A stretch of DNA of 64,000 nucleotides from Octopus vulgaris (taxonomy: Eukaryota): the NCBI GenBank assembly GCA_951406725.2, contig OX597827.1, positions 66,960,001 to 67,024,000 on the forward strand. Reading direction: 5' to 3'. Position 1 is the first letter of the stretch. Each line of letters starts with the position of its first letter. A model generated the notes under the pieces. It was not told the DNA's origin. It made no database searches and saw only the letters and a program-made list of their open reading frames with translations. The position numbers were made by a program, and so were the translations under genes. Positions 23,716 to 23,983 of the stretch are shown here, piece after piece.

Positions 23716-23983
23716 TAAAATCAAAATAAGCAACAAGGATATCCAGAGGTAATACAGTACGATCGTTTCATGCCACTCCATTTAATTGAACGATGCAAAC
23801 ATTCCAAAATGTAGATGCAAAATGTAGAGCAATCTTCAACTGCATAAAAATAGAGAAGTCTATATTTTTATGCAGCTGAAGATTGCTCTATATTTTGAAT
23901 TGATGTAATGTTTGCATTGGTCAATTAAATGGAGTCGCATGAAACGATCGTACTGCATTACCTTTGGATATCCTTGTTGCTTA
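23716..23983. mobile_element. ~265-bp palindrome: inverted dimer of an HHR-bearing element between (TA)n arrays
   Basis: Arms ataagcaacaaggatatcc.../...ggatatccttgttgcttat; centre near 23855. Confidence 0.85.
23870..23958 (+). ncRNA. Type I hammerhead ribozyme (variant with U.U at the base of stem II)
   Basis: AUGCAG-CUGAAGA-U-UGC..GCA-U-GAAAC-GAUC-GUA^CUGCAU. Confidence 0.72.

Follow-up and report, generated by a model that had tools for sequence, protein, structure and literature searches.

Putative hammerhead-bearing repeat ends joined head to head at a (TA)n site in the octopus genome, with a probable origin by cDNA fold-back

The window analyzed here is a 64-kb stretch of octopus DNA, and the locus under study lies at positions 23704-24125. 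It consists of a left arm (23727-23856), with the element sense on the minus strand and 5'-truncated at the centre, and a right arm (23859-23983) with the element sense on the plus strand. Between them a 2-nt loop (23857-23858) forms the head-to-head junction, where both arms end at the same family position. In the alignment of the two arms 113 of 130 columns are identical, and the differences comprise 12 mismatches and 5 gap columns that represent one 5-nt indel. On the outside the element is bordered by (TA)7 at 23704-23717, which overlaps its outer TA, and by (TA)72 at 23982-24125. The two outer ends are unequal: each stops at TA, 11 nt apart, and the left arm carries an 11-nt extension (23716-23726, minus strand) that is unpaired on the right and points in the tail-like direction, in which the repeat family runs on. 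Only the two truncated ends are present, with no ORF and no direct repeat.

Folding of 23700-24000 gave -176.8 kcal/mol (z -26.6), and none of 100 shuffled sequences was equally stable. A fold-back of about 265 bp with (TA)n on both outer ends, as described in an earlier sequence-only reading of the same DNA, is thereby borne out. The arms have diverged by 0.10 (Jukes-Cantor), about 0.05 each. On the scale given in the accessible part of PMC13282606, where 0.065 corresponds to 18 million years, this would place the fold-back at roughly 14 million years of age, given an octopus host and no homogenization of the arms.

The right arm contains a putative type I hammerhead ribozyme with an intact core (23870-23958, plus strand), recognized as a descriptor match. 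It combines a 6-bp helix I, CUGAAGA, a 58-nt helix II region, GAAA, a 2-bp helix III and a GUA cut triplet; helix III has a palindromic loop, an 8-nt palindrome lies at 23944-23951, and the predicted cut falls after 23952. The left arm carries the mirror motif on the minus strand (23845-23752), with UUGAAGA and a 63-nt helix II region, the core being altered by C3>U at 23839. Both motifs, including the altered core on the left, had been proposed from the letters alone and were recovered by the descriptor. In two DNA sequencing runs, introduced below as X1 and X10, the family letter at 23839 is C (90976 of 91174 in depth and 65930 of 66037, respectively), so that the U of the left arm is a private change.

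With a strict descriptor three intact-core matches were obtained in the 64-kb window; 100 simulated windows of matched composition averaged 0.04, with no more than 1 in any of them. Rfam gave no match in the window at the gathering score, and no hammerhead family was found among 26 relaxed Rfam matches, which were mostly microRNA-like generic hairpins far below threshold; the ribozyme call consequently rests on the descriptor. The long helix II likely accounts for the Rfam miss. Taken alone, each arm folds no better than shuffled sequences (z -1.2 to +1.0), and the hammerhead-constrained fold lies above the free fold by 3.3 kcal/mol for the right arm and 6.7 kcal/mol for the left. The 5' strand of helix I (23864-23875, plus strand) is a T-rich run ending in CAG that, speculatively, resembles a splice acceptor; according to the available text of PMC4209133, helix I is where an intron of the D. 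virilis Penelope has its end.

Four of 24 listed sequencing runs were aligned to 23600-23990 at 80% likeness. Two consist of DNA contigs, X1 from organism A (about 80 in 100 read) and X10 from organism C; X23 comprises raw RNA reads of organism C, of which about 6 in 100 were read, and X19 comprises what are probably RNA contigs of organism A. The two DNA runs yielded 4145 and 2484 aligned contigs, numbers that include the neighbouring repeat at 23600-23697 and are therefore not copy numbers. Summed depth in these runs was 1e5-1e6 over much of the arms, as against 143 and 263 at the centre (23853), and none of the listed pieces spans the centre of the main fold-back. Upstream of 23859 the family enters non-palindromic sequence in 25, 13, 32 and 8 records (X1, X10, X23 and X19, respectively), and it extends beyond 23984 in 77, 92, 100 and 3 records of the same runs. 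As the family continues beyond the centre as well as the outer end, each arm represents an inner portion of a longer and abundant repeat, cut at the centre and with a variable outer end. What the sequence-only reading had called two 3' ends are accordingly truncated downstream ends lying head to head, as it held, whereas the fixed 3' termini implied by that term are contradicted by the continuation past 23984.

Both arms show private changes among the 40 best-supported differences (there are 99 further ones). They also share a G, at 23897 and its mirror position, in place of the family's A (267464 of 271813 in depth in X1, 20512 of 21979 in X10). With A making up 98 in 100 (X1) and 93 in 100 (X10) of the family depth, the G is a rare base, and its presence in both arms is expected if they were copied from a single template; it is one site, and the organisms of the sequenced runs may differ from the host. 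Head-to-tail tandem hammerhead monomers are absent at the main locus, and in the runs the loose ends inspected reach 30 letters. The left flank at 23600-23697 is part of another abundant repeat, found in all four aligned runs; over 34 nt it weakly resembles (74%) the 5' portion of the arm.

The DNA runs contain eight joints that pass from left arm to right arm (seven in X1 and one in X10). Every joint is carried by a single contig (depth 18-59), and the centres lie at eight different places; the two RNA data sets contain none. The arm lengths at these joints are 25/19, 27/47, 30/29, 31/22, 65/72, 71/70, 73/81 and 77/86, and six of the eight carry 1-20 extra letters between the arms. The lengths on the two sides track each other, with a median difference of 7.5 nt and a Spearman coefficient of 0.88; only 132 of 40320 permutations were as symmetric (4e-5 under a uniform null), and 16 to 64 of 5040 when single joints were left out. 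This signal derives from two clusters, four short-short and four long-long joints, and concerns joints observable only up to the arm length of the main window element. In six of the eight the shorter side counts fewer than 30 letters, and when the test was confined to the four joints with 24 letters or more, 2 of 24 permutations were as symmetric.

The centre thus varies among copies, as the sequence-only reading had proposed to check, and no identical centre is shared by them. Together with the continuation of the family beyond the arms, the eight joints also uphold its view of the locus as MITE-like in looks, yet composed of two 5'-truncated ends that were joined. The main locus is therefore best described as the 5'-truncated downstream ends of a retroelement-type repeat placed head to head, a description that the joints and the family records support.

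Two further fold-backs of this kind occur in the window. The first (21082-21321) is related to the main element, with 62 of 85 columns matching the first arm, and has (TA)6 on its left only. Its arms are identical at 80 of 85 positions about a 1-nt centre at 21167, when a later 58-nt insert is set aside, and they end before reaching the 5' half of the hammerhead. The insert, at the tip of the fold-back (21168-21244), is (CA)-rich and SINE-like with an 11-nt direct repeat (at 21165 and 21234), as if the hairpin tip had later been used as a target. The second (53635-53691) is unrelated to the main element and has a hammerhead core and arms that are identical at 28 of 28 positions about a 1-nt centre at 53663. 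Within 53635-53728 the core reads CUGAAGA...GAAA with a short helix II, the right side runs on to (TA)n and the left side adjoins a cut SINE-like repeat.

Comparison of the window with itself gave six hits, four of the hairpin type, three of which are hammerhead-type ends, and two spaced inverted pairs. An older AT-rich fold-back (53210-53400; 72% over 121 nt) lies beside (TA)n, and an intact hammerhead core was not seen in it. The three window centres measure 2 nt (main element), 1 nt (21167) and 1 nt (53663).

Another hammerhead family is represented on the minus strand by a partial head-to-tail tandem (9688-10595) with a unit of about 487 nt, identical at 411 of 416 positions, motifs at 10505-10403 and 10015-9913, and a 68-nt helix II region. 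The tandem is flanked by the two copies of a local duplication and has (TA)n at its 3' end and (TAT)n at its 5' end; a 78-aa frame within it had no meaningful Pfam match. It looks like a young retrozyme or a partial Penelope tandem. Within this window, in a genome rich in (TA)n, such runs adjoin both ends of the main element, one end of each of the other two fold-backs and an end of this tandem. A compact hammerhead-like motif of yet another family is located at 19250-19295 (minus strand; CUGACGA, 12 nt, GAAAC, a palindromic loop and GUC). Broken reverse transcriptase frames of LINE type occur at 11468-13279 (minus strand) and are, judged by eye, unrelated to Penelope reverse transcriptase; four Penelope peptide motifs gave no match in the six frames of the window.

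Comparison with known systems, as far as the accessible portions of the cited sources describe them, points to the Penelope-like elements. In rotifer endonuclease-bearing Penelope elements, inverted pseudo-LTRs lie head to head with palindromes at the junctions, which were read as self-priming (Arkhipova et al. 2013, PMC3846280). The octopus locus resembles these elements in having 5' ends head to head, a palindromic junction, an optional extension at one end, an AT-rich target and a proposed self-priming origin. It differs in the length of the extra end (11 nt as against about 31) and in having neither ORF nor direct repeat; furthermore, priming on an antisense template was suggested for the rotifer elements, whereas at the octopus locus the nascent cDNA itself would have folded back. 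For the class as a whole an inverted 5'-truncated copy, an optional tail of 30-40 bp and a (TA)n bias have been described (Craig et al. 2021, PMC8557442). The (TA)n bias, heavy 5' truncation and inverted truncated copy are shared with the (TA)n-targeting clades Naiad, Neptune and Hydra. Octopus Naiads prefer (TA)n, and one of them has a widely spaced hammerhead half core; canonical hammerheads are lacking in the Naiads described there, in contrast to the intact-core motif of the octopus right arm.

The hammerhead itself allows a second comparison, again limited to what the sources make accessible. Hammerhead pairs of Schistosoma occupy opposite strands at a spacing of 100-700 bp (Cervera and De la Pena 2014, PMC4209133). 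The octopus motif agrees with the Penelope hammerheads of that study in being of type I, in having a weak palindromic helix III suited to dimers and an extra base after the core, and in occurring as thousands of stray copies and opposite-strand pairs. With 6 bp in helix I and 2 bp in helix III it belongs to the 'canonical' metazoan type and not to the minimal one, but its helix II region of 58-63 nt contrasts with 4-8 bp in the hammerheads of PMC4209133, and the C3>U change of the left arm occurs without the compensating A8 described for Schistosoma. Animal non-LTR retrozymes have similar hammerheads in head-to-tail units (PMC7229834) and have been proposed to derive from Penelope pseudo-LTRs (bioRxiv 10.64898/2026.07.22.740005). 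Like them, the octopus repeat is non-coding, of low GC and of type I; its helix III counts 2 bp, and helix II has a U-U at its base, which one axolotl family shows as well. Retrozymes are, however, defined by head-to-tail tandem units (monomers of 150-400 nt) and circular RNAs, while the octopus locus is head to head.

The Penelope-type features found are thus a type I hammerhead in the arm, variable 5' truncation with an inverted copy, and a (TA)n target. A possible tail signal is the 11-nt excess of the left arm together with the continuation of the family past 23984. Judged from these features the repeat is a probable member of the endonuclease-bearing (EN+) Penelope-like elements. The O. 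vulgaris genome contains 6.83% Penelope-like elements in 190 families, according to the available part of PMC13282606; one supplement of that paper (5,371 characters) held no match to the motif tried. DNA motifs tried against the accessible Naiad/Chlamys/Hydra supplement of PMC8557442 gave 0 matches, where line breaks may hide one, and the repeat appears, as far as tested, to be none of those published consensus families. No description of an octopus hammerhead family was found in the accessible literature, with Repbase, Dfam and subscription journals lying outside this search. Viral contigs gave 0 matches to the arm, and nine exact 19-mer matches in metagenomes were dismissed as chance, being without flanking similarity and located in DNA of 50-67% GC.

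We consider it probable that the main locus is a decayed insertion of the hammerhead-bearing, pseudo-LTR-like downstream end of an abundant Penelope-like element, or of a non-autonomous derivative, and that it arose by fold-back. A Penelope-type reverse transcriptase/GIY-YIG protein, acting in trans, would have cut (TA)n and started cDNA synthesis within the tail region of the RNA. Synthesis would then have halted after about 140 nt, in line with the copy-to-copy variation of the stop point among the joints. The free cDNA end may next have folded back and primed the second strand, giving a mirror copy of the same segment, as the symmetry of the arms suggests. This copy would have ended 11 nt short, at TA, and joined the far side of the (TA)n target, which is self-complementary. 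Afterwards both arms would have drifted, as their differences show, with the core C3 lost on the left. The enzyme, the order of the steps and the hairpin intermediate are what we infer from this pattern, as is the pseudo-LTR nature of the arm. Most likely, what remains at this locus is an inert fossil.

Because the arm lengths at the joints track each other and both arms share a rare base, fold-back is favoured over independent twin priming, and the eight joints and three window cases taken together lean the same way. Of the two mechanisms offered in the sequence-only reading, fold-back second-strand synthesis therefore fits better, on arm lengths and the shared base, whereas LINE-1-style twin priming would yield adjacent segments and does not fit. 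In LINE-1 twin priming, as covered by the accessible part of PMC11702581, the adjacent upstream segment is inverted and 1-10 bp are lost or duplicated at the junction. The octopus locus has in common with it an inverted segment that arises at insertion and a few extra or missing letters at the junction, but here one 125-nt segment is present twice; both arms represent the same segment (113 of 130 columns) and not an adjacent upstream one, on which grounds a LINE-1-type origin was rejected.

A version in which both strands of the cut (TA)n each prime a cDNA, from one RNA used twice by a dimeric Penelope protein or from two RNAs that share their 5' end, with head-to-head joining of the cDNAs afterwards, is unlikely yet deserves the most attention among the alternatives. 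In purified form the Penelope protein of Anolis acts on both strands, cutting and extending them, and initiates at two internal sites that mark out the tail (PMC11167929); the one-RNA form of the proposal keeps this modest standing. Two start sites would explain the 11-nt offset between the outer ends, each at TA, and this feature counts against fold-back in so far as it suits two reverse-transcription start sites equally well. Copying one RNA twice would also yield similar arm lengths and shared bases, and the 1-20 extra letters at several joints are as in end-joining. Set against this, two separate cDNAs would have to break off at almost the same point, 0-1 nt apart, in each of the three window cases and in two of the eight joints. 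Moreover, the fold-backs at 21082 and 53635 have (TA)n at one outer end only, which indicates that the target need not be symmetric. One point speaks against our preferred reading: synthesis by the purified Anolis element begins without target homology (PMC11167929), whereas the octopus fold-back ends stop at TA.

Less probable still is a later origin at the DNA level, in which a break in or beside an inserted copy was followed by host fold-back synthesis and rejoining in (TA)n, the mirror arm arising without reverse transcription. Long (TA)n runs are prone to breakage, which counts for such an origin, and symmetry and shared bases would be expected likewise. Fold-back inversions and templated inverted insertions have been described at DNA breaks in yeast, in the accessible parts of PMC7467729 and PMC11724301. 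Host repair would nevertheless have to lose the upstream part every time, and it does not predict that hairpins concentrate in hammerhead-type ends, which make up three of the four hairpin-type matches in the self-comparison of the window, when none of the many SINE-like copies beside (TA)n in the same window is a hairpin-type match.

That the locus is a MITE or another fixed palindromic unit moved whole by a DNA transposase is very unlikely. Its size of about 270 bp, inverted structure, TA context and lack of a coding frame would suit such a unit. Against it stand arms that are entire mirror copies with an RNA motif instead of short terminal repeats, unequal outer ends, the absence of any listed piece across the centre, eight other centres that all differ, and a family that exceeds both centre and outer ends; the differing centres and the continuation past centre and ends lead us to reject a fixed-centre MITE. 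Where MITE copies would be uniform in length with a shared interior and fixed ends, the centre here is unshared and the ends are unfixed, so that membership is largely refuted. Finally, an assembly or library fold-back artefact is barely credible: inverted chimeras do arise in sequencing, and no aligned record bridges the main centre or the left flank, but the arms, which an artefact would have made identical, show 12 mismatches and a 5-nt indel between them and private changes in each, and independent runs contain other such joints at depth 18-59.

Returning to fold-back as the preferred origin, head-to-head palindromes and opposite-strand hammerhead pairs in Penelope-like elements are known already. 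The new contribution is a modest one, namely the length of helix II and a first set of measurements that leans towards fold-back. Second-strand synthesis and the formation of inverted ends in Penelope-like elements are still open questions in the accessible parts of PMC8557442 and PMC11167929, and a high-copy family with variable, near-symmetric centres offers a natural data set for comparing fold-back with both-strand priming. Copies of this kind can also be mislabelled as MITEs or microRNA hairpins.

In the RNA run X23 family reads numbered 353 of 12.9 million records and occurred in both orientations; 298 of the 353 were under 90% alike and 95 in 100 ran on into other sequence. No RNA record crossed a palindromic joint (0 of 353 reads in X23, 0 of 108 contigs in X19), and no pile-up of read ends was seen at the predicted cut site in the 353 reads, which come from one fragmented cDNA library read to about 6 in 100. 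Read-through RNA, whichever strand it was copied from, would contain the antisense arm ahead of the sense arm, and the hairpin is far stronger than the hammerhead fold (about -166 versus -17.8 kcal/mol), so that the ribozyme would probably be locked off by the hairpin in such transcripts.

A wider proposal is that an abundant, undescribed hammerhead family with a long helix II routinely self-primes cDNA hairpins at (TA)n and has seeded many hairpins of 20-130 bp, which would form a major class of A-to-I editing or small-RNA substrates in host transcripts. We regard this as doubtful; if true, the seeded hairpins would act much like inverted Alu pairs in primates. Places with A>G or T>C numbered 72 against 41 with G>A or C>T in RNA (47:28 and 25:13 in the single sets) and 33 against 45 in DNA (20:20 and 13:25). 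Fisher's test on these ratios gave p 0.005 pooled, and 0.23 and 0.011 singly, for places that are not independent, with mirror positions counted twice and the animals differing. The excess is only a hint, and copy-to-copy variation can give the same result. Differences that are not of the editing type are as RNA-specific, with C>G at 23774 in 32 of 39 reads and G>C at 23976 in 57 of 127, the corresponding shares of DNA depth being about 1.5 and 0.3 in 100.
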